From Bacillota bacterium (GTDB lineage Bacteria; Bacillota; Clostridia; TANB77; CAG-465), in the NCBI GenBank assembly GCA_023460235.1, contig JAEWRE010000039.1, positions 116,820-180,819 of the forward strand: 64,000 nt of DNA, given 5' to 3'. Position numbers and translations under genes: made by a program. Position 1 is the stretch's first letter, and each line of letters begins with the position of its first letter. Below are positions 7,246 through 57,893 of the stretch, one piece after another. The notes beneath the pieces are model-generated. The model had not been told where the DNA came from. It worked only from the letters and a program-made list of their open reading frames with translations, and searched no databases.

Positions 7246-8820
7246 TCAATCAATATTTACATAATCAACATTGTTTTCATTAAATAATTTTTCTACTTTA
7301 CATACATTGTCTTCATTTTTATCATTAAGTTCTGCTCTAACAGACAAATCCAGTTCAAAATTTTCATAAAATATTGACTTAATTGACTCTATACTCTCTT
7401 GCAATTTTAAAATGTTATATGCAAATGAATTAGATGAAATTACTATTGCCAAATTGCCAGATACATATATATCAGCACTAGCAAGTGCAGAATACAATTT
7501 TATTTTTCCACTTTCAACTATAATTTTCTTTAGTTCATCTATCTTATCAAATTTTCTAACATCTGCTGTTGCAGAAGATTTTATAGAATCACTATTTTTG
7601 GTTTCAGATCTTCTTATATTGCTTGGTTCTTGAGCAACAATATTAGATGTAATTGCAGTAGCAGAGTTCTGCTCATTATTACCAATGCCAGTTGCAATTT
7701 TTGATTCAATATTTGATATTCTTTTCTTTATATTTTCAATATCAGTATTTTCTACTAAATTTTCATAGTCTTTAGAAATAACTGTATTATTTGAACTAAT
7801 GTTATTATTACATAATTCAACCAAACAACTTTTAAACACTATTTCTGGCCTTGCTGTTAAACGTAAATCATTATCAAGTTTTGAAAATTTATCTATTATT
7901 CCAACATATCTTGAAATCTCATTACTATCTTTCAATTTTATTAATTTATCTAAAAATTCGTTAGTTAATTGATATGCGAGTTGTCTTAAGTCTTTACCTT
8001 TTTGAATTATTTTATCCACACTATTAACAACCAAAATAGCATCTAAGTTTAAAATTCCATCAACCATTTCTGAAATTAATTTTGTGTCAATAGCACCAAC
8101 TATTTCTTCAACCTTCGATTGCTCTAATACATCGGATTGCTCTGATATGCATCTATCTGCAATGCTAAGTGCATCCCTTAGCCCACCATCAGCAAGTCTA
8201 GCAATATATTTAATTGCTTCTTCTTCATATTTTATATTTTCTTCATCAAGTACAAATTTAACTCTATTAACTATGTCTATTTCAGATATCTTTGAAAAAT
8301 CAAAACGCAGACATCTTGAAAGTATAGTAACAGGAATTTTGTGTTGTTCTGTAGTTGCAAGTATAAATACTACATTTTCTGGTGGCTCTTCTAAAGTTTT
8401 TAATAAAGCATTAAATGCACTTGTTGTAAGCATATGTGCTTCATCTATTATATATACTCTATACTTAACATCAATTGTTGCATAAACAACTTCTTGGCGT
8501 ATTTGTCTAATGTTTTCTACACTATTGTTTGAAGCCGCGTCCATTTCAACAACATCTGTTATATTACCAGATATTATTCCCTTACATACGCTGCATTCAT
8601 TACATGGCTCACCGTCTATCGGATTCAAACAATTAATAGCTCTTGCAAAAACTTTAGCAGCACTTGTTTTACCAGTTCCTCTACTACCACTAAAAATATA
8701 TGCATGTGATATTTTATTTGATTTAATCTGATTTTTAAGTATCCTAGTAACATTTTCTTGCCCAACTATACCATTAAAGTTATATGGTCTATATTTTCTA
8801 TATAATGCCATATATGCCAT
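7246..8820 (-). CDS. dnaX: DNA polymerase III subunit gamma/tau
   Basis: AAA+ clamp-loader motifs (GSRGTGKTS, zinc module CxxC...CxxC, SRC). The true start is MAYMALYRKYRP at ~8820. The ORF-track extension to 8958 overlaps the SRP RNA and is not coding. Confidence 0.85.
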   Translation of the reverse strand: MAYMALYRKYRPYNFNGIVGQENVTRILKNQIKSNKISHAYIFSGSRGTGKTSAAKVFARAINCLNPIDGEPCNECSVCKGIISGNITDVVEMDAASNNSVENIRQIRQEVVYATIDVKYRVYIIDEAHMLTTSAFNALLKTLEEPPENVVFILATTEQHKIPVTILSRCLRFDFSKISEIDIVNRVKFVLDEENIKYEEEAIKYIARLADGGLRDALSIADRCISEQSDVLEQSKVEEIVGAIDTKLISEMVDGILNLDAILVVNSVDKIIQKGKDLRQLAYQLTNEFLDKLIKLKDSNEISRYVGIIDKFSKLDNDLRLTARPEIVFKSCLVELCNNNISSNNTVISKDYENLVENTDIENIKKRISNIESKIATGIGNNEQNSATAITSNIVAQEPSNIRRSETKNSDSIKSSATADVRKFDKIDELKKIIVESGKIKLYSALASADIYVSGNLAIVISSNSFAYNILKLQESIESIKSIFYENFELDLSVRAELNDKNEDNVCKVEKLFNENNVDYVNID

Positions 8821-8845
8821 GTTTATCACCTCATACAAAATTACA

Positions 8846-8930
8846 CCAAACACATAGAGTGGGTTGTTTATTGCTGCTTCCTTCCGGATCTGACAAGGTT
8901 CACAATACTCTATTGTCTGGTGTATGATTA
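8846..8930 (-). ncRNA. ffs: Small SRP RNA (4.5S/scRNA-type)
   Basis: The minus strand reads ...GUCAGAUCCGGAAGGAAGCAGC... (conserved domain IV motif), with flanking helix ATAGAGT/ACTCTAT. Lies upstream of dnaX as in Bacillus and Clostridia. Higher GC than surroundings. Confidence 0.7.
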
Positions 8931-9000
8931 TTATACAATAAATATAATAAAAAATCAAGTAAAAATAAAATTATAAAGTATTTATACGCCGTTTATACTA

Positions 9001-9681
9001 TTATTTTATATAAAATCTATAATTATTTACATCTTCTCTTATAACGCTTATACCGTTGCTTAAAAGTTCTTCAGAAGGAATGTCAAGTTTGAATTTGCAA
9101 ACATTAACTTTACCAGTTGAATCAACAATATTTAAACTAAAGTTTAATTTGAAGTTTACTTCACTTATTTTTATACCTAGTGTATTAAGTAAAGTACCAT
9201 CAAATGTAACAGCAGAAGTATTATCCGGTAAGTTAGCATTAGTAAGAAAATTACTGTTTATAACATTTAATTGTATTAAATATTGTCCATCTCTATCTAC
9301 AGGATATATATCTATTTTCTTTATTTCATTAATATTTTGTTTTTCTTTATCACTTTCTGAAATAAATATATTACCTTTTTTTTCAGGGCCTTTAATTGAT
9401 ATATTATCAATATATATACTTTGTGCCTCACTATCTTTTGCAACTAATATTGAAATTTGATTTTCCTGAGAAGCATTAAATTTAATATCTGATATAGCGC
9501 TAGCAGTCGTTTCACTTTGTATTTCCTCAGTATTTACAACAGATTTTACTATTAAGTCATTTACTCTAAAAACTCCTTGATTTATTTTACCTGTATTATC
9601 AAGTACAAGCTTTGATACTATTACAATTAGAGCAACAGCTATAATAATTATTAAAAATGGAATAAACTTATTTTTTTTCAT
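9001..9681 (-). CDS. Membrane-anchored extracytoplasmic protein of unknown function
   Basis: 226 aa. N-terminal signal-anchor (FLIIIIAVALIVIV). The rest is Asn/Ser-rich. Confidence 0.4.
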   Translation of the reverse strand: MKKNKFIPFLIIIIAVALIVIVSKLVLDNTGKINQGVFRVNDLIVKSVVNTEEIQSETTASAISDIKFNASQENQISILVAKDSEAQSIYIDNISIKGPEKKGNIFISESDKEKQNINEIKKIDIYPVDRDGQYLIQLNVINSNFLTNANLPDNTSAVTFDGTLLNTLGIKISEVNFKLNFSLNIVDSTGKVNVCKFKLDIPSEELLSNGISVIREDVNNYRFYIK

Positions 9682-9989
9682 TAGAAACCTCCATCTATAC
9701 TAACTAATTATACAACAACATTCATAAAAACACAACATGTAAAATATATTTTATATAAGAGGTGTTGATATGAATAATTTTTTTAATGGTAATTTTAATC
9801 TTTTCAATAACTCTGATTGTGACCTAGATATAAATAAATTACTCGTAATTTTACTTCTACTTACTGGACAATTAGAAATAGAAGCAATACATGTATACAG
9901 GAATAACTTTATAGTTTCACTTGGAACTTTCCCAAATGCTAGCTTGTTATAAAAATAGCTAAACTATTAAATTATAGTTTAGCTATTTT

Positions 9990-11924
9990 TTAGTGATTAT
10001 CTGTAGAGCCAAATAGTTCATCAAATTTCTTTTCCAACTCTTTTTGTAAATCAAAACTTTCTTTTTCTTCTGGAATTTGTCTTTTAGATAATTCTTCATT
10101 TTTTATTTCTTCTTTTACTTTTTCTTCTTCTAATTTTGCTTTTGCCATGCTCATCCTTTTATCTAAATGTCCCACGACATCCATTGTCTTTACTTCCATT
10201 TCGTCTGGCTTTGGCATTTGAGTTATATCTCTTATTTCTGTCTGTTTAGCTATATCTCTTTGTGGATGGTATTTAAAATACCAAGCTTTTTTTGCTCTTA
10301 TTGGTCTAAGACCTCTAACTAATACTATTTCATCATCTGAAGGAAGTCTTTTCAATTCATCTATTGTCATTAAATCTCTTCCCTGACGTTGTTCACTAAA
10401 TGAAACACCTTGTTTTTCACGTTCACTTTTATCTTTACTTACAGATCTACTTTGATATTTAATAGTCTTTTGACCTAAACTTTTTGAAAAGTATTCACAA
10501 GTCTTTATTGATTGACTTCCAAGAAATAGATGAGTATCACAGTTACCAATTATATTTTCATATGTATCTTTATATAAAGATTCTATTTGGTCTAAACTTT
10601 GTACTACTATTGACATACTTATCCCTAAACTTCTAGTTGTACTAAGTTTTTTATGGAAATCTGGTATTTGTCCTATGTTTGCAAATTCGTCCATTAAGAA
10701 ATATACTTGATTTCTAAGAGTTCCACCATTTCTATCAGCTTGTGAATACATTATTTGTATCATTTGGCTAAAGAATATAGTTAATATATAGTCATAAGTA
10801 CTCCTATCTGCAGGTGTTATAACAAAAAGTGCAGTTTTTTGATTAGATATTTCTTCAAAGTCTATATTATTAGATGTAGTTACTTTTTGCATCGCAGGGG
10901 TATCAAAATCAGATAATTTTGATACAAGAGATATTGCTATGCTTTGTTTAGTTTTATCAGCGCCAACTCTTATTCCTTCATACTCTTTTCTACCAGGATG
11001 TTCAGGTTTAAGTTCATCAATAAAAAGTCTATCAAAGATCTTTTCATCTGCTCCACCTTGTCTAACTATATTTAAACAGCTAGATAAATTTTGTTCTTCT
11101 TCTGGGAGTACTGATATAACATAATAAATACATGCTTTAAGTAACATTTTTGCAGTATTATCCCAAAATGGATCTTGTGACTGAGTATCAGCTTTACCGC
11201 CCTTTATAATTGTATCTGCGATTATATCAACATCTGCATGATCTCTTATATGTGCAAGTGGATTGTATCTATCGCTATATTCTGAATTAACCAAATTTAG
11301 AGTTCTGATTTTATATCCACTATTCTTTAAAAATATAGAAGTCTCTCTATACAATTCACCTTTAGGATCTGTTATTACGTAAGATCCAAGTCTTTGTAAT
11401 ATATTAGGTTTAATGTAACAAGCTGATTTACCAGCACCTGATCCACCAACTACTAATATATTCTTATTTACTTTTACTTTCTTTAAATCAGTTCCTAAAT
11501 AATGTGTTTTACTAAGTATAAATCCTTCTTTTTTATTTAATATTTGGCTTCCATCTGGTAATCTATCGAATTCTTCACCATTTTTACTCCAGTCACTTGA
11601 ACCATGTTCCTGATCCTGATACTCATATGCTTTAGCAAATTTAATTTTCCAAAAAATGTATAACACTAAAAATGCTATTAAAGTATAAAATGATGCAGTC
11701 ATAAAACCAATAAAATCAACAAAAATAGCAGTAAAAAATTTAAAGCTAGTCAAATTAGGCATAAAATTCTCTACTATCTTTGTTATTCTATCTACTGAAT
11801 TAACATCAGCAGGTAGACTTTTTATTGATATAATTAAAGTTCCTACGATAATTATATCAAATATTAAATATGCTATTAAAAAGGGCATTAATTCCCTTTT
11901 TAATTTATTCATCTTAGATCTCAT
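9990..11924 (-). CDS. TraG/TraD/VirD4-family type IV coupling protein-like ATPase (orphan)
   Basis: 644 aa. N-terminal TM helices, Walker A VVGGSGAGKS followed by ITDPKGEL. Walker B FLMDEFANIG, then the TraG-like block QSLDQIESLY...IIGNCDTHLFLGSQSIKTCEYFSKSLGQKT. Confidence 0.6.
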   Translation of the reverse strand: MRSKMNKLKRELMPFLIAYLIFDIIIVGTLIISIKSLPADVNSVDRITKIVENFMPNLTSFKFFTAIFVDFIGFMTASFYTLIAFLVLYIFWKIKFAKAYEYQDQEHGSSDWSKNGEEFDRLPDGSQILNKKEGFILSKTHYLGTDLKKVKVNKNILVVGGSGAGKSACYIKPNILQRLGSYVITDPKGELYRETSIFLKNSGYKIRTLNLVNSEYSDRYNPLAHIRDHADVDIIADTIIKGGKADTQSQDPFWDNTAKMLLKACIYYVISVLPEEEQNLSSCLNIVRQGGADEKIFDRLFIDELKPEHPGRKEYEGIRVGADKTKQSIAISLVSKLSDFDTPAMQKVTTSNNIDFEEISNQKTALFVITPADRSTYDYILTIFFSQMIQIMYSQADRNGGTLRNQVYFLMDEFANIGQIPDFHKKLSTTRSLGISMSIVVQSLDQIESLYKDTYENIIGNCDTHLFLGSQSIKTCEYFSKSLGQKTIKYQSRSVSKDKSEREKQGVSFSEQRQGRDLMTIDELKRLPSDDEIVLVRGLRPIRAKKAWYFKYHPQRDIAKQTEIRDITQMPKPDEMEVKTMDVVGHLDKRMSMAKAKLEEEKVKEEIKNEELSKRQIPEEKESFDLQKELEKKFDELFGSTDNH

Positions 11925-11963
11925 ATATTTCCCTCTTTATTTATTCTTCCTCTTTATAAATAA

Positions 11964-12221
11964 TTATATTATAGGTTCATCTTCCCCCGGATATTTTTTT
12001 TCATCTTTTTCTATATCAGATTCTTGATTTCCTTTAAGCCTATTTTCTAAGTCTAATTTATTATTTTCTTTGAATTTTTCTATTTTATCTTTATCTACAA
12101 GTATACTTCTCTCAAGGTTTAAAGGTTTATCTAATTTTGCTATTATTTCAAAATCTTTTCCTTTAAAAACAGCAGCACTCACTTTTACCGTTATTTTTCT
12201 CTTTTTATTATCTATTTCCAT
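11964..12221 (-). CDS. Small charged protein, unknown function
   Basis: 85 aa, Lys/Glu-rich. Only ORF evidence. Confidence 0.3.
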   Translation of the reverse strand: MEIDNKKRKITVKVSAAVFKGKDFEIIAKLDKPLNLERSILVDKDKIEKFKENNKLDLENRLKGNQESDIEKDEKKYPGEDEPII

Positions 12222-12303
12222 TATTAAATCCCTCCATAGTAGTATAAATTAATATATCTAAACTACATATTACTACTAATTGTGTATTTTTATCAACCTA
12301 TTC

Positions 12304-12822
12304 TTATTCAAACTTTAATTCAAGTACAATGTATGGTCTATTTGGTAATAGTTTACATTTACCTTTTATATCACCAGTAGATTCATCTGTATATAATACT
12401 GGTCTAACTTCTTCACAACTTTGTGTATCAATTATTGAAAAATGTCTTTTCATACTAGGTGTATACTCAACTTCTTTGTATTCAATTCCTTCTTGGTTAT
12501 ATATTGTTCCATAATTTAATGGAATGTTTGACTCAGTTGCTGTAAATCCATTTTCATCAAGTTCTCCTGTGCTTATTATTGCTTTTGAACTTGTAAGAGT
12601 GAGCAAAATAACTAGTTGTTTTTCGTCACTAGTTTTTATTATATTGAAAGTTTTCTTGATTTTTCCACCTTCTTCAGTGTCAATACTTTCAATTTTTTGT
12701 AATGTAAGTAAAGCTTTTCCACTTCTGTAATCATCTTCATTTTTTTCAACAACAAATGCAATAGTATTCATACCAGGCATATCTACCAATTCAAACTTAT
12801 TCATTTGTAACAAAGGTTCCAT
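12304..12822 (-). CDS. Hypothetical cytoplasmic protein
   Basis: 172 aa, no recognisable motif. Confidence 0.4.
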   Translation of the reverse strand: MEPLLQMNKFELVDMPGMNTIAFVVEKNEDDYRSGKALLTLQKIESIDTEEGGKIKKTFNIIKTSDEKQLVILLTLTSSKAIISTGELDENGFTATESNIPLNYGTIYNQEGIEYKEVEYTPSMKRHFSIIDTQSCEEVRPVLYTDESTGDIKGKCKLLPNRPYIVLELKFE

Positions 12823-12931
12823 ATTTTTTACCTCTTTTCTTAGGATTATATTGCTCCTATTCTAGTATATTTTTATTATACAATAATATATTTTCTTATG
12901 CAATACTTTAAAATGTTTTTTTATTGGTTTT

Positions 12932-14713
12932 TTAGCTTGCACCAGCTCCAGATGGCGCTTGATTATTTACATTAGCTGTTCCTATTCTAACAACACGTTG
13001 TTGAGGGTTATATGTATCCCTTGATAACATAGCTGAACTCACAACAACTCCATTTAATTTTTTAGTTATATATCCTTCTGAAACATATCCATTAACGCCC
13101 TTAACATCGACAATTTCTGTCCCACTTGCAAGATTACTATCGTATACATATTTTGTGCTATATGCTATTGTTGAAATGTATTTATGTGTTAATTCTATTT
13201 CATATTCTGTTTCTTCTTTTGTTCCATAGATACTAATATTTAGACTTCCTGAATTACTATATGAAGCAATAATCTTTACTGGATATTTTCTATTATTTTT
13301 AAATTTAAAATCAAGGACTGGCGAATAAACTGTAGCATCCAAACTTGGTTGTACATAACCTACTGGAAGTCCATGCTGATGTCTTTCTACAATTCCCAAA
13401 TTAGCTTTTAGTGCTGCGTCATAAAGAGTTGAAGTAGTTTGGCATATACCACCACCAAGTTCCATTACAACAGTACCGGCTTTAAATGTTGCTGCTTCTA
13501 AATATCCTTTTGAAGCAGTAGTATCACCAATTGTAGCATTGTATGAAAAAGTTTCTCCAGGCATTACAATTTTACCATTTAAATAGCTAAGTGCTAACGA
13601 AAGATTATTTGCCCTTGCTTTTTGAGATGCATCAAAATATGTTGTTACACCAGATAATTTATCATTATATAAGTTTTTTGTTATATCAGATAATTTTACT
13701 TTTGGTTCTAATACTGTAAGGTCAAATGAAATTGATTTGCCTTCAGTTTGATTTTCTTGTTCACTAAGAATCTGTTTTAGTTTTGTTATATCAACATCAA
13801 AACCTTTCTTCTCAGATACGTATCTATTTGGTGTTACGCTCTCATCCACATAAGCATTCTCAGGGTCTCTTTTAATATTACTATATATGTCATCAACATT
13901 TAATTCTTTAGGTTCTTTTTTTATAATATTAAGTTGATATATATTTTTTGAATCAATAAAATTTTTAACAATATCATCTTGTGTTGTGTTATAATCTATT
14001 GAATTTCCTGAAGTACCATTTACAATTATTAATCTATTATTTTCTTCATCTATACTATAACTATCATCAACAAATCGACTTTCTACACTTAAATCAATGT
14101 TTTTAACTATATCCTCAAGTTTTTGCTGATTATAACTATATTCTATATTTAGACTTTTGCTACTAAATAATACCTTTAGAATTTGTGCGTTATCAACAAG
14201 TATATTACCTGTTCTTCCAAATTCCATGATAGCTTTTGTTGTTTTTTCAACATCGATTCCAAACTCTATGTCTTCAGGTTTAACTTCAAATATCTTTTGA
14301 GTCCCTTGATATAATTCAACTTTTTCTATACCTGTAGCTTGTTTATTCTTTTCATTTAAAAATTCTACTACCTGTTCAGAAGTTTTACCAGATAGATTTT
14401 CACCTAAAATATATACATTTTTATACACATTAGTGTTAAATCTATTGATACCAGCTATCATTGCAAATGTTAAAACTATACATATAATAACACCTACAAT
14501 ACTAATTAATACAATAATTCTAGTTTTTGAACTATCTTTATACTCTACTATTTCTTCACCATTACTATTTTTTGTTCTAAATAATTTTCTTCTTTTTTTA
14601 GAGTTATTTATATCATCTTCATTTAAATATTCATTTTTTACATATTCTTCAAGATTGCCTTCATTAATATTTACTTCTTTTTCTTGATCTTTATCTGAGC
14701 CGTTTTCAGACAT
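12932..14713 (-). CDS. VanW-family protein with N-terminal TM anchor
   Basis: 593 aa. C-terminal VanW-like block (GGGICQTTSTLYDAALKANLGIVERHQHGLPVGYV). Confidence 0.55.
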   Translation of the reverse strand: MSENGSDKDQEKEVNINEGNLEEYVKNEYLNEDDINNSKKRRKLFRTKNSNGEEIVEYKDSSKTRIIVLISIVGVIICIVLTFAMIAGINRFNTNVYKNVYILGENLSGKTSEQVVEFLNEKNKQATGIEKVELYQGTQKIFEVKPEDIEFGIDVEKTTKAIMEFGRTGNILVDNAQILKVLFSSKSLNIEYSYNQQKLEDIVKNIDLSVESRFVDDSYSIDEENNRLIIVNGTSGNSIDYNTTQDDIVKNFIDSKNIYQLNIIKKEPKELNVDDIYSNIKRDPENAYVDESVTPNRYVSEKKGFDVDITKLKQILSEQENQTEGKSISFDLTVLEPKVKLSDITKNLYNDKLSGVTTYFDASQKARANNLSLALSYLNGKIVMPGETFSYNATIGDTTASKGYLEAATFKAGTVVMELGGGICQTTSTLYDAALKANLGIVERHQHGLPVGYVQPSLDATVYSPVLDFKFKNNRKYPVKIIASYSNSGSLNISIYGTKEETEYEIELTHKYISTIAYSTKYVYDSNLASGTEIVDVKGVNGYVSEGYITKKLNGVVVSSAMLSRDTYNPQQRVVRIGTANVNNQAPSGAGAS

Positions 14714-14737
14714 AAATACCTCCTTTCCAACTAACTA

Positions 14738-15520
14738 TTAATTATTTTCTAATTTTTCCTCAGCTAAGTTTACTATTTCATCATTTTTACTATTTTCTTT
14801 TTTTCTTATAAGTACAAGCGGCGTAAGAGTCTTTACTTGACCTGCAGGATTATCTTTTATCATTGCCTTTAGCTCTTCATCACTATATGGAATACTATCT
14901 GCTTTTCCAAGAATTTCAACGTTAAAATCATTTGCATCTACTATCATACATTTAATTCCAGTTTTTTCAAACATTTCATTACATACTCCTGTAGAATTTT
15001 CTGGTATTCTTATACCAAAATCAGCATAGTCAGAAAAAACATCTCCATAAAAACCATCAAGGCCACTTATTTCAGGTCCAACAATTTTATAAAAAATACC
15101 TTTTTTACCAAATAATTTTCCAAATCCACCTGCTACTGCTGCAAAAATAACTTTTGCTCTGCCACAAAGCATTATTGCAAACTGCATTTTGTATGGATTA
15201 TCTACCCCAACACCAGCATCACTTCTCATTGCAAATTTAGAAAGAAATTTAGCCAATTTACTTACTCTTACATCTTTCTTATATATTACTCTTTTTTGAC
15301 AAAGTCCTATTATTTTTTCACTTATAGAAATAATATCTCCTTCTTCGTAGATATCACCTGCATATTTTTTTATTATATCAATATAATCTTCACCTATTTG
15401 AACGTAGTGCGTTTCAATAGCATGTCTCAAATATGTTTGACCATTTACATTAATTTCAATATTTTTTTTAGGATTAGCTCTAAATTCCATAAAATTACCT
15501 CTTTTCTCAAATCTTGTCAC
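14738..15520 (-). CDS. Putative CofE-like gamma-glutamyl ligase family protein
   Basis: 260 aa. Weak recollection of the CofE/F420-0:glutamate ligase-like fold in Firmicutes. Assignment tentative. Confidence 0.3.
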   Translation of the reverse strand: MTRFEKRGNFMEFRANPKKNIEINVNGQTYLRHAIETHYVQIGEDYIDIIKKYAGDIYEEGDIISISEKIIGLCQKRVIYKKDVRVSKLAKFLSKFAMRSDAGVGVDNPYKMQFAIMLCGRAKVIFAAVAGGFGKLFGKKGIFYKIVGPEISGLDGFYGDVFSDYADFGIRIPENSTGVCNEMFEKTGIKCMIVDANDFNVEILGKADSIPYSDEELKAMIKDNPAGQVKTLTPLVLIRKKENSKNDEIVNLAEEKLENN

Positions 15521-15760: not shown

Positions 15761-15790
15761 ATATATTAAAAGGTAGACCTTTCGGTCTAC
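15761..15790 (-). terminator. Terminator hairpin at the 3' end of rnpB (AGGTAGACC-GAAA-GGTCTACCT)
   Basis: Perfect 9-bp stem directly after the RNase P RNA 3' helix. Confidence 0.6.
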
Positions 15791-15794
15791 CTGA

Positions 15795-16120
15795 GCATCC
15801 TATAAGCCGGATTCTGTTTTAAATAGTCATTTATCTAGAATATGCATTACTACATATTTCGAGCCACCAACCACGAAAGACGACGGGCAGTCTTAACCTT
15901 TCTTTTTTGGTGTTGCACCAAGTGGGGTTTACACAACACCTATGTCACCATAGATGTTTGTGAGCCTTTACCTCACATTTTCACCCTTACCAGTTTACAC
16001 TGGCGGTAATTTTCTGTTGCACTTTCCTTAGGATCACTCCCACTAGACGTTATCTAGCACTATTGCCCTATGGTGTCCGGACTTTCCTCTTGTAAATACA
16101 AGCGACTATTTCGAATACTC
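15795..16120 (-). ncRNA. rnpB: RNase P RNA (bacterial type B)
   Basis: The minus strand contains GGAAAGUCCGGACACCAUAGGGCA (P4 region), ...AGGGUGAAA...GGUAA..., and P1 pairing AAAUAGUC/GACUAUUU. A ~330-nt GC-rich island without an ORF. Confidence 0.8.
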
Positions 16121-16197
16121 TTAGTAATTATATCATAAATTAAGACAAAAATAAATAGATATAATCAGCATTTTGACTATATCTATTTATTTTTTAA

Positions 16198-18648
16198 TTA
16201 TTCTTCAATTTCTTCATCTTCTTGTGGTATTTTTGCTATATTTATTACTTTTCCACCATCAGAAGTTCTCATTAATGTAACACCTTGTGTATTTCTACCA
16301 AGAACACTAATATCTTTAACATTTAATCTTATTACTACACCTGTATCAGTTATTAACATTACATCATCTGTATCGTTAACAATTTTAATACCAATAATAT
16401 GACCTGTCTTAGAAGTAGTCTTGTATGTAAGTACACCCTTACCTGCTCTTGATTGTTGTCTATACTCTTCTGCTTCTGTTCTTTTACCAAAACCATTTTC
16501 AGTTATTGCAAGTATATAATCTTTTTCATTCGCTATCGGTTCCATACCAATAACCTTATCATCTTTTGCTAAGGCAATTCCTTTAACACCCATTGAGGTT
16601 CTTCCAACAGGTCTAACTTCTTCTTCAGCAAATCTTATAGATAGACCATTAGTTGTAACTAAAACAACACTTGTATCTCCATTAGTAAGTCTAACGTCAA
16701 TTAATTCATCATCATCTTTTAATGTTATACCTTGTATTCCAGATTTACGTATATTACTATATTCTTCTAATTTAGTTTTCTTTACAAGACCATTTTTTGT
16801 AGCCATTAAAACATATAATGGTTCATTATAATCATGAACTGGTATAACAGCTGCAATCTTTTCGCCTTGTGAAAGTTGAAGTAGATTTACAATAGCAGTT
16901 CCCTTTGCAGTTCTACTAGCTTCTGGTAACTCATATGCTTTAAGTCTAAATGCCCTACCTGAATTTGTAAAGAACATTATATAATCATGTGTTGACGTTA
17001 TAAATAGATGTTCAACAAAATCTTCTTCTCTAGTGTTCATTGCAGTTAAGCCTTTTCCACCACGCTTTTGGCTTCTATATACATCTGCTGCAATTCTTTT
17101 TATATATCCAAAATGAGTAAGAGTAACAACATTTGTTTCTTCTTTTATTAAACTCTCTAGATCAATTTCACCATCACCATGAGTTATCATAGTTCTTCTT
17201 TCATCACCATAAGTATTTTTTATTTCTGTTAATTCTTCTTTTATTATATTTTTTACAAGTTGTTCAGAGTCAAGAATTTCTTTTAAACTAACTATTAACT
17301 TTAATAAGTTGTTATATTCTTCTTCAATTTTTTCTCTTTGAAGTCCTTGAAGAGTTCTAAGTCTCATTTCAAGTATAGCATTTGCTTGAATTTCTGATAA
17401 TCCGAATTTAACCATAAGTCTAGTTTGTGCATCATCATATGATTCACGAATTATTCTTATAATTTCATCTATATTATCAATCGCTATTCTTAATCCCTCT
17501 AAAATATGAAGTCTTGCTTCAGCTTTTTTTAGATCAAATCTAGTTCTTCTAACTATTACATCTTCTCTATGTTTTATATATTCACCAAGTATTTCTCTTA
17601 AAGTTAAAACCTTAGGTTGTCCATTAACAAGTGCAAGCATTAACATGCTTTGAGTTGTTTGTAATTGAGTATGCTTATATAGTAAATTTAATACTACATT
17701 TGGATTTGCATCCCTTTTTAGCTCTATAGCAATTCTTAGTCCTTGTCTATCTGATTCATCTCTTAAGTCAGATATTCCTTCTATTGTTTTTAATTGAACT
17801 AATCTAGCAATATTTTCAACTAAAGCCGCCTTATTAACTTGATATGGTATTTCTGTTACTATTATTTTATATCTTCCTCTATTGTCTTCTTCAATTTCTG
17901 CTTTTGCTCTTACGCAAACTTTACCTCTACCAGTTGTGTAAGCATCCTTTATTCCTTCTTTACCGATTATAATTCCAGCAGTTGGAAAATCAGGTCCTTT
18001 TACATATGCTATTAATTCTTCATTTGTAATTTCAGGATTATCAATTTGAGCAATAACACCATTAATTACTTCAGTCAGATTATGAGGTGGTATATTACAA
18101 GCCATACCAACAGCTATACCATAAGATCCATTAATTAATAAGTTTGGTAGTTTAGCTGGTAAAACTGATGGTTCCTTTAATCTATCATCATAGTTAGGAA
18201 CATAATCAACTGTTTCTTTATCTATATCAGATAACATTTCAAGTGAAATTTTGTGCAATTTTGCTTCAGTATACCTCATTGCAGCTGGTGGATCATTATC
18301 AATTGATCCAAAATTTCCATGCCCATTTACTAGTGGGTATCTAAGTGAAAAATCTTGTGATAGACGCACTAGGGCATCATATATTGCAGCATCACCATGT
18401 GGGTGATAATTACCCATAACATCTCCAACTATACTTGCAGATTTTCTGAATGGTTTTTCTGGCCAAAGTGATAATTCACTCATTACATATAAAATTCTTC
18501 TATGTACTGGTTTTAATCCATCTCTTACGTCAGGAAGAGCACGTGAGGCTATAACGCTCATTGCATAATCAATATATGATCTTTTCATTTCTTCTTCTAT
18601 GTTTACAGGTACAATGTTTTGAGCACCTAAAATATCATCTTCGTTCAT
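16198..18648 (-). CDS. gyrA: DNA gyrase subunit A (GyrA/ParC family type IIA topoisomerase, with GyrA-box)
   Basis: 816 aa. Active-site region and a QRRGGKG-like GyrA box (SQKRGGKG), C-terminal beta-pinwheel repeats and an acidic tail. No adjacent gyrB. Confidence 0.75.
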
Positions 18649-19776: not shown

Positions 19777-20802
19777 TTATATTCCGCTGCTAGGTATTCT
19801 TTTTCTTTTTATTCTAATATCATCACCTATAAATTTGCAAGCAATAAATCCTCCAAGTATTCTCGATACAACTCTTTCATCGTAAACACTATATAATTCT
19901 TGTAAATTTAAGTTTGTTGATATAATAATTTTTCTATTTTCCAACAATCTTGTATTTATTATATTAAATAACTCTGTAAATTTATTGTTGCTCATAGTCT
20001 CTGTTCCAAGATCATCAATAATTAATAAATCTACATCAAATAATCTTTGATAATTATCTTTATTAGAACTCTTTTTATCAAAATTGAATTTATATTCCAT
20101 GATAGAATCCATTAATAGTGGTGCTGTTTGATATATAACAGTTTTACCTGCTTTTATTAACTCATTTGCAATACAATTTGCAATAAAAGTTTTACCAAGT
20201 CCAGTATTTCCTACAAATAGTAAATTTTTCTGTTCATTATCATCTATCTTTTCAATAAAAATTTCCGATATTTTCTTTATATTTTCTATATTTTGCAATG
20301 GTGATTTAGTCATTCCATACTTTTCTTTATCAGTTTTTGAAGAGTAATAGCATGTGTCAAAAGTTCCAAAATTTTCTTCTTTAAGCCTTAACATATTATA
20401 TTGTTTATATGATTCGTTAATAACTCTTTGTGTAAAGCAATTACAGTATTTCTCCATTCCATTTTCAATAATTTTGCCAGTATCTTTACAAATTTTGCAT
20501 TCATATTGAGGTTCAAAAAAATCTTTTGAAATACCAAGCTTATTTAAAATATTTTCTATTTTCTTTTCTATTTCAGAAAGTTTCTTATTCATATTTTCTT
20601 CTTCTACTTGCCTTGTTATTGTATCACTCAATAATATATTTCTGGTGATTTTTAATGCAATTATATTTTTTTCTTCTTCTAGTTTTTGTAAATCACTATT
20701 TTCTTCATATATTTTTTTCTTCCTAAATGTAACAATAGATTCAGCCTGTTTTCTTTTAATTTCATATTCTCTTTCAAGTTGATTATATATATAATTGCTC
20801 AT
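19777..20802 (-). CDS. dnaI: DnaI/DnaC-like helicase loader (AAA+ with N-terminal zinc-binding module)
   Basis: 341 aa. CKICKDTGK...CNCF zinc ribbon. Walker A GNTGLGKTF, Walker B LLIIDDLG. Confidence 0.7.
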   Translation of the reverse strand: MSNYIYNQLEREYEIKRKQAESIVTFRKKKIYEENSDLQKLEEEKNIIALKITRNILLSDTITRQVEEENMNKKLSEIEKKIENILNKLGISKDFFEPQYECKICKDTGKIIENGMEKYCNCFTQRVINESYKQYNMLRLKEENFGTFDTCYYSSKTDKEKYGMTKSPLQNIENIKKISEIFIEKIDDNEQKNLLFVGNTGLGKTFIANCIANELIKAGKTVIYQTAPLLMDSIMEYKFNFDKKSSNKDNYQRLFDVDLLIIDDLGTETMSNNKFTELFNIINTRLLENRKIIISTNLNLQELYSVYDERVVSRILGGFIACKFIGDDIRIKRKRIPSSGI

Positions 20803-44844: not shown

Positions 44845-46089
44845 ATGAAGAGAAGAGAACGTAAAGAAGTAACATTTCTGCAAATTAAAGGTGTATCTGA
44901 AGATGGAAGTTTCATATATGAGGTTTATGCTTCAAATCTATACACAAAAATCAAGCTTATATCCTACATGAATGGTACAGCTGAAATCGCAGTTGAAACT
45001 TCTGTGAGTATATCCGATTTAGCAAAACTAGCATCCGGTATTTTTTCAAAACATAGTAATTTTTTTAATGTTAATTCTTTAGTTTTAAACTATCGGAGTA
45101 TAAAGTTAGTAGTTTGTAAAAATAATGGAAGAAAAGATATTATCTCTATGTTATTAAAAGCTCTTTCAACTTCTAAATCTGATAATTATTCAGCTATATC
45201 CTTTATCGATATGGACGTTTGCTCGGTTAAGTATGATGATAACCCTTCCTATTTTAAAAATACATCAAAAATTACTCTCTTTGCACCGTCTTCTATATGG
45301 ATTAAGAAGTTATACTCATTTGATTTTGAAGATATATTATGTTGGGGTAAAAACATGTTTTTTAGTAGTCAATTTACAAAAGATTGTTTTACTTTATCAT
45401 CTTTAAAGAATGGTATAGTAACAGTTGAATGCTTAGCGGGAGGGTCTATTTCAAATTTCTTAAAAATTCTTAAAAATTTCTTTATTCCATACTCTAATAT
45501 GTATGGAATAAAAGGTATAGAGGTTGATTTTAATGGTTTTTCAATTCATATTGATGATAGAAACATTGACAAAATTTATTCGCTTTTCCATCAAAGCTGC
45601 GATTTTTCTAGTCTGTTATATGAAAAAGATTTAAATGATTATTACAACTCCCCTGAATATACTTCCAAACATGCTAAGGAATTGAAAAAACGCTGCAGAA
45701 AAAATGCTACATTACAAAAGATCAAATCATATAGCGGCAATAAAATTGATTTTTCATTACAAAAAAATCTAGAAAAAGACTGGGAACAATGTAAGAGCAT
45801 AAATTCAAAAGATAAATATAGCAACGGAGTTATTGAATATACTATTCTTTGGGCACAGTATATGGAATATTTGATTAATAATTATAATAAAAAAATATCA
45901 GAAATTTACGATATTTGTTCTCATGCTGCTGATATAGATGGCATAACAGGATATATGTATGGCTGTGCTGTAAATTTACTATCCGTTTTCTGGAAATATG
46001 GCGATGATTTGAGGATAGAACATAATAAAAAATATGACTACTGTGGTGATGGAACTGTAAATCCTGCTATTTTAACAATCTCAGCATAA
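44845..46089 (+). CDS. Hypothetical protein (414 aa), no recognisable domain
   Basis: Good RBS (AAAGGAGA). Cys-containing, no repeats. Confidence 0.45.
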   Translation: MKRRERKEVTFLQIKGVSEDGSFIYEVYASNLYTKIKLISYMNGTAEIAVETSVSISDLAKLASGIFSKHSNFFNVNSLVLNYRSIKLVVCKNNGRKDIISMLLKALSTSKSDNYSAISFIDMDVCSVKYDDNPSYFKNTSKITLFAPSSIWIKKLYSFDFEDILCWGKNMFFSSQFTKDCFTLSSLKNGIVTVECLAGGSISNFLKILKNFFIPYSNMYGIKGIEVDFNGFSIHIDDRNIDKIYSLFHQSCDFSSLLYEKDLNDYYNSPEYTSKHAKELKKRCRKNATLQKIKSYSGNKIDFSLQKNLEKDWEQCKSINSKDKYSNGVIEYTILWAQYMEYLINNYNKKISEIYDICSHAADIDGITGYMYGCAVNLLSVFWKYGDDLRIEHNKKYDYCGDGTVNPAILTISA

Positions 46090-46186: not shown

Positions 46187-46262
46187 TGGTGTTCCTGGTG
46201 CGAATCGAACGCACGACCAACGACTTAGGAGGTCGCTGCTCTATCCACTGAGCTACAGAAAC
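46187..46262 (-). tRNA. tRNA-Arg (anticodon CCU)
   Basis: On the minus strand: GTTTCTGTAGCTCAGTGGATAGAGCAGCGACCTCCTAAGTCG...CACCAGGAACACCA. Anticodon loop CTCCTAA. Confidence 0.8.
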
Positions 46263-48636: not shown

Positions 48637-48713
48637 GGTTACATATGCACCTGTAGCTCAACTGGATAGAGTGCCGGACTACGAATCCGTAGGTTGGGGG
48701 TTCAAATCCCTTC
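48637..48713 (+). tRNA. tRNA-Arg (anticodon ACG)
   Basis: GCACCTGTAGCTCAACTGGATAGAGTGCCGGACTACGAATCCG...CAGGTGCACCA. Serves as attachment site for the downstream element. Confidence 0.85.
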
Positions 48714-48725
48714 AGGTGCACCAAA

Positions 48726-49595: not shown

Positions 49596-50264
49596 TTATA
49601 TTTTAGTTAGTCCACCAGACCAAACATAATTTCCTTTTGCACTTTTGTACCATTTATTATTACCATTAACATTTTCACCTTCTACAATAGCTACTGCTTT
49701 AAATATATCACCTTTTTGAAGTAATCCTGTACCAGCTATCCCAGATTTAGAAGTTGCTTGGCTTCTTACATTAGCCTCTGATTTATCTACTCTTATATTA
49801 AAACTCTTTTCTTGTGTTTGCTCTGAATATGGCAGTATTTCCATTTGATGTTTGAAATATGGATTAGGATCTACTGGTATATTGTTTTCTCTTACTTCAA
49901 AGTGTAAATGTGCTCCAGTTACAAATCCAGTTGCTCCCATGTATCCAATTACTTGTCCATCTTCTACAATATCTCCAATATTAACACACACAGTACCTGG
50001 TTTCATATGAGCATATACTGTACTTATATTGCCACCATGTTGAATATGTACAAAATTCCCATAGCTTCCTGCTTTATATCCTGGTACGTTCTTTTCAGCA
50101 TTTATTACTTTACCTTTTTTACAAGCAATTATTTCGTCTAATTGGTAACCTTGTTTCACAAAGTCTATTCCAGAATGTTTATATGGTATACCATTTAACT
50201 TTTGATTTCCATATTGCAATGTTATTATTTCTTGTTCACTTTTTAATACATTCATGTTAAACAC
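49596..50264 (-). CDS. M23 (lysostaphin-like) peptidase with C-terminal SH3b cell-wall-binding domain: putative lysin
   Basis: 222 aa. M23 motifs HSGIDF...HxH (GAHLHFEV). SH3b-like C-terminus (KWYKSAKGNYVWSGGL). Confidence 0.7.
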   Translation of the reverse strand: MFNMNVLKSEQEIITLQYGNQKLNGIPYKHSGIDFVKQGYQLDEIIACKKGKVINAEKNVPGYKAGSYGNFVHIQHGGNISTVYAHMKPGTVCVNIGDIVEDGQVIGYMGATGFVTGAHLHFEVRENNIPVDPNPYFKHQMEILPYSEQTQEKSFNIRVDKSEANVRSQATSKSGIAGTGLLQKGDIFKAVAIVEGENVNGNNKWYKSAKGNYVWSGGLTKI

Positions 50265-50290
50265 CTCTATTTTTTTATATATTTTGTTGT

Positions 50291-51991
50291 TTAATTTTTT
50301 ATATCTACAATTTGCATTTCTGCATATCTTACTTGACCTGCGCCACCATCTTGTTGAAGTGAATGTATTATTGATTTAAACACTGTCCACGTTCCAGGTA
50401 TAGTATTCCATGCAACTTTATTAGTAGAAATCCTCATCATTCTGGCATTATTAGTTGCACCCCATATTCTCTCAAAATTGAATGAAATATTTTTGTATGA
50501 ACCATATTGATCAAATAATCCAACAACAGTGGCAGCATTATCAATTTGACAATTATCAGTATAGATTAACATCATTTGTGCATATCTACTATATCCTTCA
50601 GGTAATGGAATTCTTGAATCAATATCACTTTTAAAATTATAAAATATATTTCCTAAGTCTTTCCAACTTCCCTTATCTATATTTACAGGTGTATCTCCAG
50701 CTATACCAAATATGGGAAAACTTGCAACAATCTTATTTTTTGTAATACTATATAATTCTCTTCCTTTTCTAGCAGATAATGCATCTGTTGTACTATTACT
50801 ATCAAAGCTATCTACAACTATGGATTCAAGAGGTACGCTATTTTTAGCTTTAATAATTGAATATTCAACGAAATAAGGTTGTAAATTATTATGAGCCTGA
50901 CCGCCACCACCAAGATTAAATTTTAAATTTTGTAATGAATTTTCTGAATTATAAATCGTTGCATCTTTGTATTTTCCAGTAACTGAATTTGAACTACTAA
51001 ACACACCTTGAGGAGCCCAGGTATTAGAACCATTAGTGGATCCATGAAAATCTATCTGACCAGTAACATTAGGTATTTGATTTAAAGTTAAAGTATGTGT
51101 TTTTGCACCACCTATTGTTCCTATCTTATTAAACTCTGTTTGAGAGCTATCATGTGATACTACAACCTTCCCTTTTTTATTTGGAAGATTAAATGTTGTT
51201 GAACCATCCCCTTCTCCATACATAATTCCTATAACATCAAATAAGTCTTTATATTCTGTTCTTGATACTGCTCTACCATCTTCAATAAGCCAATTACTAG
51301 GAGGATTAGCAGAAGGATAATATCCTTCAAATCCTATAGGAAGGGTATCTGAATTTATTGTGCCTTCACTATCAACTTTAATTCCATCTGGACCAAACAC
51401 AATAATATATTTTCCATCATCAATATTTGTATAATGATATTTTGGTATATTTACATTTACGCTTGTTGCTATTGCTAATTTTATATAGAATTTTTTACCT
51501 TTAGTAAAACCTTGTGCACCTAAATCGCCTTGAAGTAAACTTTCTATTGAAAATTCACTTTTTTGTTCTTTATATACTATTTTTGATAAGTCAATTTCGA
51601 ATGGGCCATATTCAGTTCCTTCAGTTTTACCATTTTGATTATATGGAGATTCACTAGACCAATATTTTATATATTTTACATCATACTTCTCTAAATATTT
51701 TAACTTACCAGTTGCTTTAAATTTAACTTTTTCATCAACATCATTTGACCTTGTAGCCTCAACACTAGTAAAGTATGGGGTATAAAAAATTTCAACATTC
51801 AAAGGCTTAATGCTACTAGAAGTATTTCCCCTACTATCTACAATGGTTACTTTAACATAATCTTTTCCATCTTTTAAACTTTTAATCAATTTATCATCAT
51901 TTAAATAAATTGTTTCTGTTAAATAGGAATATCCATTCGGAAATATTATACCTTCCATTATAACAACACCTCCTCTGTTTGCCCGTTCCAT
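50291..51991 (-). CDS. Tail fibre / receptor-binding protein with phage tail-collar domain
   Basis: 566 aa. GGGGQAHNNLQPYFVEYSIIKA collar signature. Gly-rich, beta-rich. Confidence 0.55.
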   Translation of the reverse strand: MERANRGGVVIMEGIIFPNGYSYLTETIYLNDDKLIKSLKDGKDYVKVTIVDSRGNTSSSIKPLNVEIFYTPYFTSVEATRSNDVDEKVKFKATGKLKYLEKYDVKYIKYWSSESPYNQNGKTEGTEYGPFEIDLSKIVYKEQKSEFSIESLLQGDLGAQGFTKGKKFYIKLAIATSVNVNIPKYHYTNIDDGKYIIVFGPDGIKVDSEGTINSDTLPIGFEGYYPSANPPSNWLIEDGRAVSRTEYKDLFDVIGIMYGEGDGSTTFNLPNKKGKVVVSHDSSQTEFNKIGTIGGAKTHTLTLNQIPNVTGQIDFHGSTNGSNTWAPQGVFSSSNSVTGKYKDATIYNSENSLQNLKFNLGGGGQAHNNLQPYFVEYSIIKAKNSVPLESIVVDSFDSNSTTDALSARKGRELYSITKNKIVASFPIFGIAGDTPVNIDKGSWKDLGNIFYNFKSDIDSRIPLPEGYSRYAQMMLIYTDNCQIDNAATVVGLFDQYGSYKNISFNFERIWGATNNARMMRISTNKVAWNTIPGTWTVFKSIIHSLQQDGGAGQVRYAEMQIVDIKN

Positions 51992-52875
51992 TCTATTATT
52001 GCCTTTTTTAAGGTAGCTCCATTTTTTGCTTTAAGACTATCATTCTTTATAGCAATATAAGCATTAGATAGGGTTCCATATAATTCAAATCCAGCAATTA
52101 TATTGTTTATTTCTTGATTTGAACTAGTCCCACCCTCAATATCAAATATTCCAAAAATAGGGATCTCTGGATTACTATTAACAACCTTACATTCACCATT
52201 TGCAGTAGTAGTTCCTAAATATGTATTGTCAATATAAGTATAGAGATTAATTCTTATATTGGCTATTTTACTATTTGGCAATAAATTATAAAAAGTATCT
52301 TTTATATCAGCTAAATTGAGAGTAAAATTCTTAGAATTTTTTTCAAACTTTTTTATATTTATCCATGTATTATTTACATACATATCTAAATCTAATTTAT
52401 AATTATAATTTTGATTGGTTATATCTGATATATTTATATTTAAGTTATTTCCAATATCAAAATTTATATTAGAACTTATATTACTTGATACATAACCAGT
52501 TGGGGTTGTTAATGTTCTATCGGCTCCAGTATCGTATGTTATACTCCCTCCATTTGTGCTTTTAAATATAACTCTACAACCATTTATTTGGTTACTTCCA
52601 TATCCTTTATTAAACCAATAATAATCAGAATCAGAAGGAAAGTAACTTGTACCACTCCCATTATTTGGTGTGTTTGCTTTTATTTGTCTACCATAATTAG
52701 TTCCTTCAGTATATACATCTGAAATTATATTATAACCAAAATAATATCCATTATCTATTGCCCACGTTAATTTCCATCGTATACCAAGTCTAGGACCATC
52801 TCTTGTTGTTTCATATTCAACAATATAATTTATATGTCCCCATTGATTTTCTTTGCCTTGTGCGAATACTTGCAT
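51958..52875 (-). CDS. Tail fibre/baseplate-associated protein
   Basis: 305 aa, Asn/Gly/Tyr-rich beta-type composition. Positioned between the Tal-like and fibre genes. Confidence 0.35.
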   Translation of the reverse strand: MQVFAQGKENQWGHINYIVEYETTRDGPRLGIRWKLTWAIDNGYYFGYNIISDVYTEGTNYGRQIKANTPNNGSGTSYFPSDSDYYWFNKGYGSNQINGCRVIFKSTNGGSITYDTGADRTLTTPTGYVSSNISSNINFDIGNNLNINISDITNQNYNYKLDLDMYVNNTWINIKKFEKNSKNFTLNLADIKDTFYNLLPNSKIANIRINLYTYIDNTYLGTTTANGECKVVNSNPEIPIFGIFDIEGGTSSNQEINNIIAGFELYGTLSNAYIAIKNDSLKAKNGATLKKAIIEWNGQTEEVLL

Positions 52876-52886
52876 AATTTTTCCTC

Positions 52887-54761: not shown

Positions 54762-55135
54762 TACACTATCACCTCACTACTTTTTTCTAATATGACATCA
54801 AATTCAGAATATGATTCCCCATATTTACTATATATTAAATTTTTAGATCCTTTGGTTACTATAAAATTATATTTTTTATAACTTCTTGTATTTGGATTCC
54901 AAACTTCATATTCTCCATCTACAAATCTTTCATTATATTCTTTTATAGTTGAACCATCTAGTTGCCCTATATTTATTCCAATTGTTAAAGTATTATAAGA
55001 AGCATAAATGATTTTTATGCTCCCATCTGCCTTTATAGATTTATTTAAAACAACTGGTTGTTCATCAAATTCATATCCTTCACTCAATATATTACTAAAT
55101 TTATATGTTCCTTTTTTTATTAAATAATCTTCCAT
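54761..55135 (-). CDS. Small tail component (distal-tail position)
   Basis: 124 aa, immediately after the tape measure. Short for a canonical Dit. Confidence 0.3.
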   Translation of the reverse strand: MEDYLIKKGTYKFSNILSEGYEFDEQPVVLNKSIKADGSIKIIYASYNTLTIGINIGQLDGSTIKEYNERFVDGEYEVWNPNTRSYKKYNFIVTKGSKNLIYSKYGESYSEFDVILEKSSEVIV

Positions 55136-55144
55136 ATGTACCTC

Positions 55145-56368: not shown

Positions 56369-56387
56369 CTTTTCACCTCACTTTTAC

Positions 56388-56424
56388 AAAAAAGAATGCA
56401 TCCTTAGATGCATTCTTTTTTCTA
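56388..56424. terminator. Hairpin with flanking T-runs inside the tail gene string (AAGAATGCATC-CTTA-GATGCATTCTT)
   Basis: Perfect 11-bp stem between the chaperone and tape-measure genes. Possible attenuator. Confidence 0.4.
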
Positions 56425-56466
56425 ATTTTATTTTTTATTATTTGATTCTTTCTTATATATATTGTT

Positions 56467-57042: not shown

Positions 57043-57045
57043 ATA

Positions 57046-57399
57046 CTACTTCCTTTTTTGTACTCTTCTTTGTTCTCTATTAGGTTGATATCTATTAAAA
57101 GTATTTTCAAATTCCTTTTGCTGTTCTAATTTCTCTTTAACAATATCCTCAAAAGCAGTTATACAATCTTGTAAATTATTTTTTTCACCAAAAATATTAA
57201 GTGATACTCCTTCACCGAAAACATTATCAAAGAATTCCTTTATTAGTATACATTCTAATTTTATAGTTTCAGATAATTTCATATCTTTTTTTTCATATTC
57301 TTCTGCCTTTTCTTTAACCTTTTGCACTTCAATTTCAAATTTTTCAACGCAATCAGCATCTAAAAAATCAAAATCAACTTCTACTTCTCTTATTTTCAT
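57046..57399 (-). CDS. Tail assembly chaperone (gpG-like position)
   Basis: 117 aa, acidic, directly after the major tail protein. Confidence 0.35.
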   Translation of the reverse strand: MKIREVEVDFDFLDADCVEKFEIEVQKVKEKAEEYEKKDMKLSETIKLECILIKEFFDNVFGEGVSLNIFGEKNNLQDCITAFEDIVKEKLEQQKEFENTFNRYQPNREQRRVQKRK

Positions 57400-57402
57400 C
57401 TA

Positions 57403-57891: not shown

Positions 57892-57893
57892 TT

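Follow-up and report, generated by a model that had tools for sequence, protein, structure and literature searches.

A vertically inherited VirD4-type coupling ATPase with two private partners on the chromosome of uncultured gut Clostridia

Introduction

What does a coupling protein of the conjugative type do on a bacterial chromosome when no relaxase accompanies it? The question is raised by a stretch of 64,000 nucleotides from a Bacillota bacterium (GTDB lineage Clostridia; TANB77; CAG-465; contig JAEWRE010000039.1, positions 116,820 to 180,819), hereafter called the window. Here, a 644-residue ATPase resembling VirD4 and TraG, the coupling proteins (T4CPs) of type IV secretion systems (T4SSs), is encoded at 9990-11924 on the minus strand, in a string of six open reading frames (ORFs) between the ffs-dnaX and rnpB-gyrA blocks. 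We name it T4CP-A. Coupling proteins are usually read as markers of mobile DNA, and annotation pipelines as well as programs that look for integrative and conjugative elements (ICEs) would flag T4CP-A as a conjugation remnant. The original prediction for this locus, made from the DNA letters, took the string for an accessory islet and offered two explanations, a decayed ICE fragment or a homologue of T4CPs that has taken on a role outside conjugation. The evidence collected below favours the second.

Results

T4CP-A is a VirD4-type coupling ATPase

T4CP-A is a genuine coupling ATPase of the VirD4 type and, judged by its motifs, catalytically intact. It matches PF02534 T4SS-DNA_transf with 258.9 bits (E 1.2e-76, cutoff 20.1) over model positions 45-455 of 468, PF12696 TraG-D_C with 127 bits and PF10412 TrwB_AAD_bind with 104 bits. 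In NCBIfam, it scores 428.7 bits with NF045973 conju_CD1115 ("VirD4-like conjugal transfer protein, CD1115 family"), far over the cutoff of 250. The Pfam search at E <= 0.01 returned no match to FtsK_SpoIIIE (PF01580), so the TraG/VirD4 identity proposed from motifs withstands the comparison with this housekeeping family.

The ATPase signature is complete, with GGSGAGKS at residues 160-167 (Walker A), DPKGE at 186-190 and LMDEF at 410-414 (Walker B), followed by the C-terminal motifs NCDTHLFLG (461-469) and TCEYFSK (475-481). Both Walker motifs are invariant among 24 clade members. Hydropathy places hydrophobic segments at residues 10-39 and 66-97 of the N-terminus. At the other end, the protein carries a clade-specific extension: a low-complexity linker, whose length differs among members by up to some 60 residues, leads in the clade alignment to the almost invariant terminal peptide DLQKELEKKFDELFG. 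A variable linker with a conserved terminal peptide is the layout expected for a tethered docking peptide. From its family, T4CP-A is predicted to deliver a substrate to a T4SS channel.

T4CP-A has its origin among the CD1115-type T4CPs that conjugative elements of clostridia encode. With these proteins, encoded by CTn/Tn1549-type ICEs and plasmids of clostridia and enterococci, it shares the hidden Markov model family, the N-terminal membrane anchor, the nucleotide-binding domain and the TraG-D_C region. Even a gene of about 160-170 residues directly upstream of the T4CP is common to both; in the ICEs this gene is PcfB-like (about 158 residues) and the order runs PcfB-like gene, T4CP, 71-residue protein, VirB6-like gene, PrgI, VirB4. 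At the T4CP-A locus, however, the upstream gene is unrelated and all-beta, and no channel genes follow downstream. The protein itself differs by its clade-specific C-terminal linker and terminal helix, and by its vertical inheritance. T4CP-A is thus a CD1115 member by sequence, yet it stands outside the context of that family, which is a conjugative element with relaxase and VirB4.

A core gene rather than an islet

T4CP-A is a core, vertically inherited and chromosome-fixed gene under strong purifying selection. The identities of its homologues descend smoothly from 100% to 57% across more than 120 clusters, almost all of them rare, whose named members are "Clostridia bacterium" metagenome-assembled genomes. 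When a single genome of each species was scanned, 17 loci with 51-71% full-length identity to T4CP-A were retrieved, among them one of Clostridium sp. CAG:1219. Below 51% a sharp gap opens, and the ICE T4CPs of Lachnospiraceae, Oscillospiraceae and others start at 40% or less. The clade so delimited, in which the T4CP is conserved across species at 51-83% identity, comprises uncultured low-GC gut Clostridia, with one member named Christensenellales by NCBI. Its GerA, SpoIID and SpoIIID genes indicate that it forms spores.

The genes around the T4CP recur in the order gyrA, CofE-like, (VanW), 172-residue gene, small ORF, T4CP, (226-residue gene), dnaX, ybaB, recR. Related loci are designated below by L numbers; the arrangement from gyrA to recR is kept in L003, L009, L012-L016, L018, L082 and L165. 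The flanks differ in L004-L008, L010, L017, L163 and L164, where the neighbours are still core genes (ftsH, tilS, dnaB, secDF, spoIID, prfA). The 172-residue gene and the small ORF lie directly upstream of the T4CP in 21 of 21 related loci, those with changed flanks included: the module keeps its internal order while its flanks change among lineages.

Selection on the T4CP is strong, with Nei-Gojobori dN/dS values of closely related pairs ranging from 0.04 (L004/L017 and L013/L018) to 0.09 (window/L082). Pairwise T4CP identity follows that of gyrA with r = 0.77 over 45 pairs, which are non-independent. Composition is native: GC content lies between 0.24 and 0.31 inside the six-ORF string and between 0.26 and 0.31 in its flanks, in a window of about 27% GC. 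A search for att-like repeats bounding the string gave only short AT-rich imperfect repeats.

Mobile elements share little else with this locus. A comparison of all ORFs of 63 ICE loci with those of the window and its related loci left the T4CP as the sole gene consistently in common, and the closest plasmid or ICE relatives of T4CP-A reach at most 38-41% identity. The closest plasmid T4CPs (31-38% identical) bear the CD1115-family annotation and adjoin a PcfB family protein. Relaxase, integrase and VirB4 genes were found neither among the window ORFs scanned nor within 10 kb of the T4CP in related loci. The statement of the original prediction that relaxase, VirB4, integrase and recombinase are missing at 9-15.5 kb therefore extends to every window ORF scanned.

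Since the gene order recurs clade-wide, T4CP-A is core and not accessory. We reject the accessory islet on account of the conserved synteny, the native GC, the lack of att-like repeats in the search described and of an integrase among the ORFs scanned; the recurring dnaX-to-gyrA order and the dN/dS of 0.04-0.09 speak equally against a decayed ICE fragment.

Two clade-restricted partners

The 172-residue partner gene (12304-12822, minus strand) belongs to a family of 281 members, all from the clade and none with a Pfam domain, whose mean column identity is 59%. The protein itself gave no Pfam match at E <= 1 and none in NCBIfam. Its AlphaFold2 model is all-beta (pLDDT 83), with generic beta-sandwiches as its only structural neighbours, and hydropathy detects no hydrophobic segment. 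It is thus predicted to be a cytoplasmic all-beta protein of a clade-restricted family. We tried and rejected the possibility that it is a diverged PcfB/DUF3801 protein, given an hhalign probability of 0.1% and the all-beta model.

Between this gene and T4CP-A lies the small partner ORF of 85 residues (11964-12221, minus strand), preceded by a GGAGG ribosome-binding site and without a match in Pfam or NCBIfam. In the loci examined, its position holds an ORF of 50-105 residues or a fusion to the 172-residue gene. The small proteins are poorly conserved save for an N-terminal strand-like segment and an extreme C-terminal motif, acidic-x-[ILM]-[IV]-COOH, as in GEDEPII, GENDMII, EDGMIV and GEDDLIV. 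The two partner genes are fused in L008, L010 and L163, and in L013, L016 and L018 the terminal motif stands at the end of the 172-residue protein instead. This fusion, and the migration of the motif from one protein to the other, lead us to argue for a joint action of the two partners and for a functional tag.

A candidate promoter of the three-gene module, TTGCAT and TATAAT spaced by 17 nt, lies at 12861-12903 on the minus strand, proposed from its resemblance to the consensus. The promoter scan did not flag it because its -35 hexamer matches in three of six positions. Its -10 region falls in a 26-nt block (12861-12886, before the 172-residue gene) that is 85% identical to one before ffs (8916-8941) and contains TTGTATAAT on the minus strand; the repeat probably reflects a strong -10 promoter context that the two sites have in common.

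In one lineage (L163:12053-14164 and L010:11904-13686), spoIID, an M23 peptidase gene (in a SpoIIQ-like position) and spoIIID come directly after the fused partner gene and the T4CP. This adjacency, the sole hint of a link to sporulation, may be due to chance.

A T4SS-like membrane module upstream

About 10 kb upstream of T4CP-A and on the same strand, we found a set of four genes at 21817-25215. The original prediction described a T4CP without a secretion channel or a relaxase. The second half of that description holds; the first was overstated in view of this T4SS-like set.

The first gene (23371-25215) encodes T4CP-B, a protein of 614 residues with a hydrophobic N-terminal region, which matches PF10412 TrwB_AAD_bind with 55 bits and, at 14 bits, stays under the 24-bit cutoff of FtsK_SpoIIIE. 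Its family has 82 representatives at E <= 1e-30. In profile-profile comparison this family aligns with the T4CP-A clade with a probability of 96.8% (E 2e-10) and with ICE VirB4 with 4%, so we rejected an assignment of T4CP-B as VirB4. Next comes a VirB2-like pilin of 114 residues (23030-23374; PF18895 T4SS_pilin, 30.5 bits, cutoff 26.6), whose orthologues also touch PF04956 TrbC/VirB2. It is followed by a putative VirB6/TrbL-like polytopic membrane protein of 283 residues (22198-23049; PF04610, E 0.003) with several hydrophobic segments by hydropathy. Of 40 orthologues of the latter, nine match TrbL, at best with E 2.9e-6, and no other family was matched. The last gene (21817-22194) encodes a putative PrgI/VirB3-like protein of 125 residues with two hydrophobic segments (VirB3, E 0.085); nine of its 40 orthologues match PF12666 PrgI, with a best E of 1.9e-5. 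PrgI is the VirB3 of monoderm systems. Directly after it come dnaD (20820-21779) and then dnaI (19777-20802); ksgA, dnaX and recR are also in the window.

The order of the module recurs in 80 gut-metagenome loci, where the ATPase is 40-56% identical and gyrA 64-86%. The pilin gene follows T4CP-B in 67 of the 80 loci and the VirB6-like gene is present in 66; dnaD-dnaI comes after the module in 38-40 of them, and gyrA is nearby in 28. A comparison with the CTn-type ICE module (71-residue protein, VirB6, PrgI) gave no significant profile similarity. The upstream module would thus have a different ancestry, or be too diverged for the relationship to be recognized.

In sister lineages (L135, L143, L151 and L109), whose gyrA is about 65% identical, we detected a split VirB4 of 182 and 605 residues that scores 214 bits with the ICE VirB4 profile and matches Pfam P-loop_TraG, AAA_10 and DUF87. 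Together with a conserved 233-residue protein, it lies just upstream of gyrA (L135:19268-21545, L143:9189-12262, L151:19774-21571, L109:13134-14420). In L151, VirB4 itself is broken into two ORFs. The sister-lineage gyrA is inverted, and the VirB4 block is convergent with the block of T4CP-B, pilin, VirB6, PrgI, dnaD and dnaI. In the lineage of the window, the T4CP-A module occupies the other side of gyrA from the dnaD-dnaI membrane module. Given the 80 conserved loci and the sister-lineage VirB4, the wider group carries a chromosomal, relaxase-free T4SS gene set around dnaD-dnaI-gyrA.

Discussion

Proposed function and its rivals

We propose that T4CP-A serves as the ATPase that receives the substrates of a T4SS-like machine, one that is chromosomal, domesticated and devoid of a relaxase, and give this reading, with the roles of partners and channel included, a probability of roughly 0.55. 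As a membrane-anchored hexamer, T4CP-A would be the substrate receptor and motor arm of the translocon, and the upstream set would provide its membrane parts: the second T4CP-like ATPase, the VirB2-like pilin, the VirB6-like and the PrgI/VirB3-like proteins. The 172-residue and 85-residue pair would serve as adaptor or cargo, docking through its mobile C-terminal tag, and the conserved C-terminal helix of T4CP-A, carried on a variable linker, could act as a second tethered docking peptide. As no relaxase is present, the cargo would more likely be protein than relaxase-piloted DNA.

Several points weigh against this proposal. What ties T4CP-A to the upstream module is a shared strand, a distance of 10 kb and membership of the same family, and lineages whose gyrA is about 65% identical also carry the module, with no T4CP-A seen in the 10 kb around it. 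The labels "VirB6-like" and "VirB3-like" are weak when applied to the proteins of the window. VirB4 is the signature ATPase of every T4SS; the profile built from ICE VirB4s detected no such gene in the 64-kb window, in the 10 kb around T4CP-A at 21 loci or in the close-lineage loci L084 and L086-L089. Finally, binding between the partners and the T4CP is presumed, and the modelled partner fold gives no functional clue.

The main rival, which we hold to be unlikely, sees in T4CP-A a stand-alone translocase: a channel-free membrane pump for DNA or protein, with a housekeeping task, for example in handling the chromosome during division or sporulation, as for FtsK/SpoIIIE, and with the small proteins as its regulators. 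T4CPs and FtsK are of common ancestry. Both are membrane-anchored, hexameric RecA-like pumps of one superfamily, and FtsK/SpoIIIE, too, are vertical housekeeping genes. Such a role would suit a module that sits among origin-region core genes in every lineage, be it dnaX-recR-gyrA in the window or, in L163, dnaB-tilS-ftsH with spoIID, M23 peptidase and spoIIID; it would also suit a spore-forming clade (GerA, SpoIID, SpoIIID genes) and the failure to find VirB4 near T4CP-A. But T4CP-A scores as VirD4, with TraG-D_C and the all-alpha domain of T4CPs, and FtsK_SpoIIIE is absent at E <= 0.01 (T4CP-B matches it below the cutoff); membrane genes of the T4SS type are encoded at a distance of 10 kb, and the adjacency to spo genes is confined to one lineage. 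Quite improbable, in our view, is a resident helper that couples the relaxosomes of plasmids or of integrative and mobilizable elements, encoded elsewhere or transient, to a T4SS. Such elements reportedly pirate the T4CPs and T4SSs of others, and T4CP-A has retained the relaxosome-recognition region TraG-D_C of the conjugative CD1115 family. Nevertheless, an identity of 51-83% across species, dN/dS below 0.1 and fixed partners would be unexpected of a gene that depends on variable mobile elements, and no relaxase or oriT-type gene was found near T4CP-A in any locus.

Two further explanations have very little in their favour. A functionless leftover of an ICE, in an accessory islet, would account for the ICE origin of the T4CP family and for the lack of any other conjugation gene next to it; it is contradicted by purifying selection, invariant catalytic motifs, clade-wide synteny and co-divergence with gyrA, besides the native composition and the missing att-like repeats, and its chances are slim in the extreme. 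Just as far-fetched is a component of anti-phage defence built on an FtsK/HerA-like ATPase. Both ATPases do give weak PADLOC matches to the mad8, DpdF and HerA models, but at 19-29 bits these scores reflect generic P-loop similarity, the partners match nothing in PADLOC, and the genes are core and syntenic, outside any variable island.

In a bolder scenario, which we consider distinctly doubtful, this subclade would have lost the ancestral VirB4 block beside gyrA, and its replacement would be a T4CP of the ICE type that was captured and has two new partners. The outcome would be a T4SS-derived translocon with two coupling-protein paralogues and no VirB4, exporting the 172-residue and 85-residue proteins or protein cargo that they escort, and possibly tied to sporulation or cell-cell contact. 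If true, this VirB4-free translocon with two T4CPs would be a T4SS architecture without known precedent.

Comparison with known systems

Coupling ATPases with a flexible C-terminal extension, a docking peptide and small partners encoded nearby are known from the F plasmid (TraD with TraM) and from Dot/Icm (DotL with its adaptors). T4CP-A resembles them in its C-terminal docking layout and small partners, which would make them functional analogues only; we found no similarity of sequence or fold between the partners and TraM or IcmS/IcmW.

As a whole system, the closest precedent is the chromosomal T4SS of Patescibacteria, which is relaxase-less, of MPF-FATA ancestry and located near replication genes and ksgA (PMC12102498). 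It includes PF18895-type pilins, PrgI/VirB3 and VirB6, its T4CPs are encoded away from virB4 and are possibly exapted, and in Saccharimonadia it is reported as a requirement for growth as epibionts (PMC12102498). The set described here is likewise chromosome-fixed and relaxase-free, close to replication genes and ksgA, with PrgI, VirB6 and a PF18895 pilin and with a T4CP apart from the channel genes; the clade genomes also appear reduced (longest contig 1.37 Mb). It differs by its Clostridia host, its two T4CP paralogues, the two dedicated T4CP partners and the lack of a detected VirB4 in the window. The literature searched yielded no account of a T4CP or T4SS fixed on the chromosome in TANB77, Christensenellales or Clostridia.

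A coupling protein here appears as a stably inherited and selected core gene, with private partners, in widespread uncultured gut Clostridia. The domestication of T4SSs would thereby extend to monoderm Firmicutes. The three-gene module offers a test case for what a coupling protein recognizes without a relaxase, and it may point to an unrecognized system of cell-cell interaction in abundant gut bacteria.

Neighbouring genes and additional observations

The six ORFs, the flanking ffs and rnpB genes and the ATPase motifs all lie where the original prediction had put them, yet the six do not behave as a single unit: the 226-residue gene stays with dnaX, and the VanW and CofE-like genes are not universal. 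The CofE-like gene, called as a 260-residue ORF at 14738-15520 on the minus strand and probably starting at 15490 (250 residues) as in the gene call of L001, heads the block. Its product matches PF01996 F420_ligase (F420-0:gamma-glutamyl ligase family) weakly, with 23.2 bits, under the 25-bit cutoff, and orthologues 72-83% identical to it are found upstream of the module in 13 loci. Ahead of it, the promoter scan located a strong promoter-like TTGACA-17-TATACT at 15555-15527. The next gene (12932-14713, minus strand) encodes a membrane-anchored protein of 593 residues with VanW (150.6 bits), G5 (50.6 bits) and PG_binding_4 (42 bits) domains. A VanW-type gene is present upstream of the module in L002-L004, L012, L014, L015, L017, L082 and L164, and absent there in L009, L011, L013, L016, L018 and L165. 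Both genes are thus frequent neighbours of the module, and not universal ones.

At the other end of the string, the 226-residue ORF (9001-9681, minus strand) encodes a fast-evolving, membrane-anchored beta-sandwich protein without a Pfam or NCBIfam match. We do not count it in the module because in L003, where the T4CP has moved, the gene remains with dnaX; it is linked to ffs-dnaX and probably foreign to the module. The idea that it could be a VirB8-like channel part was discarded, as it is a beta-sandwich with no NTF2 fold and travels with dnaX in L003.

Two minus-strand RNA genes flank the string, ffs at 8837-8926 and the gene for RNase P RNA at 15788-16121; dnaX (longest ORF 7246-8958) and gyrA (16198-18648) received their domain assignments from the L082 orthologues. 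The longest dnaX ORF begins with TTG and overlaps ffs. The true start is probably an ATG at about 8820, opening MAYMALYRKYRP. In several loci, translation of part of the signal recognition particle RNA region gives a conserved pseudo-peptide, CQAIEYCEPCQIRKEAAI.

One subclade has a fixed insertion of a single nucleotide in the T4CP gene, among the codons for Walker A; three species of the clade, from three studies, share it (L012:10474-10490, L014:10474-10490, L015:10468-10484), changing GTT GGT GGA TCT to GTT GGA C GGA TCT. The insertion is absent from the equivalent site of the window, at about 11440-11455, and from L002, a nearer relative of L012 than L015. It splits the gene into ORFs of 163-165 and about 500 residues, and deletion of the inserted C restores the full-length ORF. 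For the L012/L014 pair, dN/dS is 0.15 and 0.06 in the two halves, both under purifying selection. The cluster of the truncated first ORF, in its L015 type, counts 178 members, one of them named Christensenellales bacterium, and single sequences of this ORF occur on up to 274 contigs, one of 1.37 Mb. CGG accounts for none of the 195 arginine codons in the long genes of the window. The insertion is a candidate for a programmed +1 frameshift, with CGG as the hungry codon, or for a stably split T4CP.

Further along the window, a phage tail and lysis module occupies 49596-59308 on the minus strand, with genes for a holin, tail completion, a short tape-measure protein of 407 residues, tail proteins, a tail-collar fibre and an M23 peptidase; a gene resembling helix-turn-helix repressors lies at 62587-63210. 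No capsid, terminase or integrase gene was found in the part scanned, and the module may be what is left of a prophage, or else an element of the tailocin kind. Two tRNA-Arg genes are located at 46187-46262 and 48647-48723. Adjoining the phage-like region, a protein of 414 residues (44845-46089, plus strand) matches Pfam Tad4, the inhibitor of type I Thoeris, with 85 bits over its C-terminal 100 residues.

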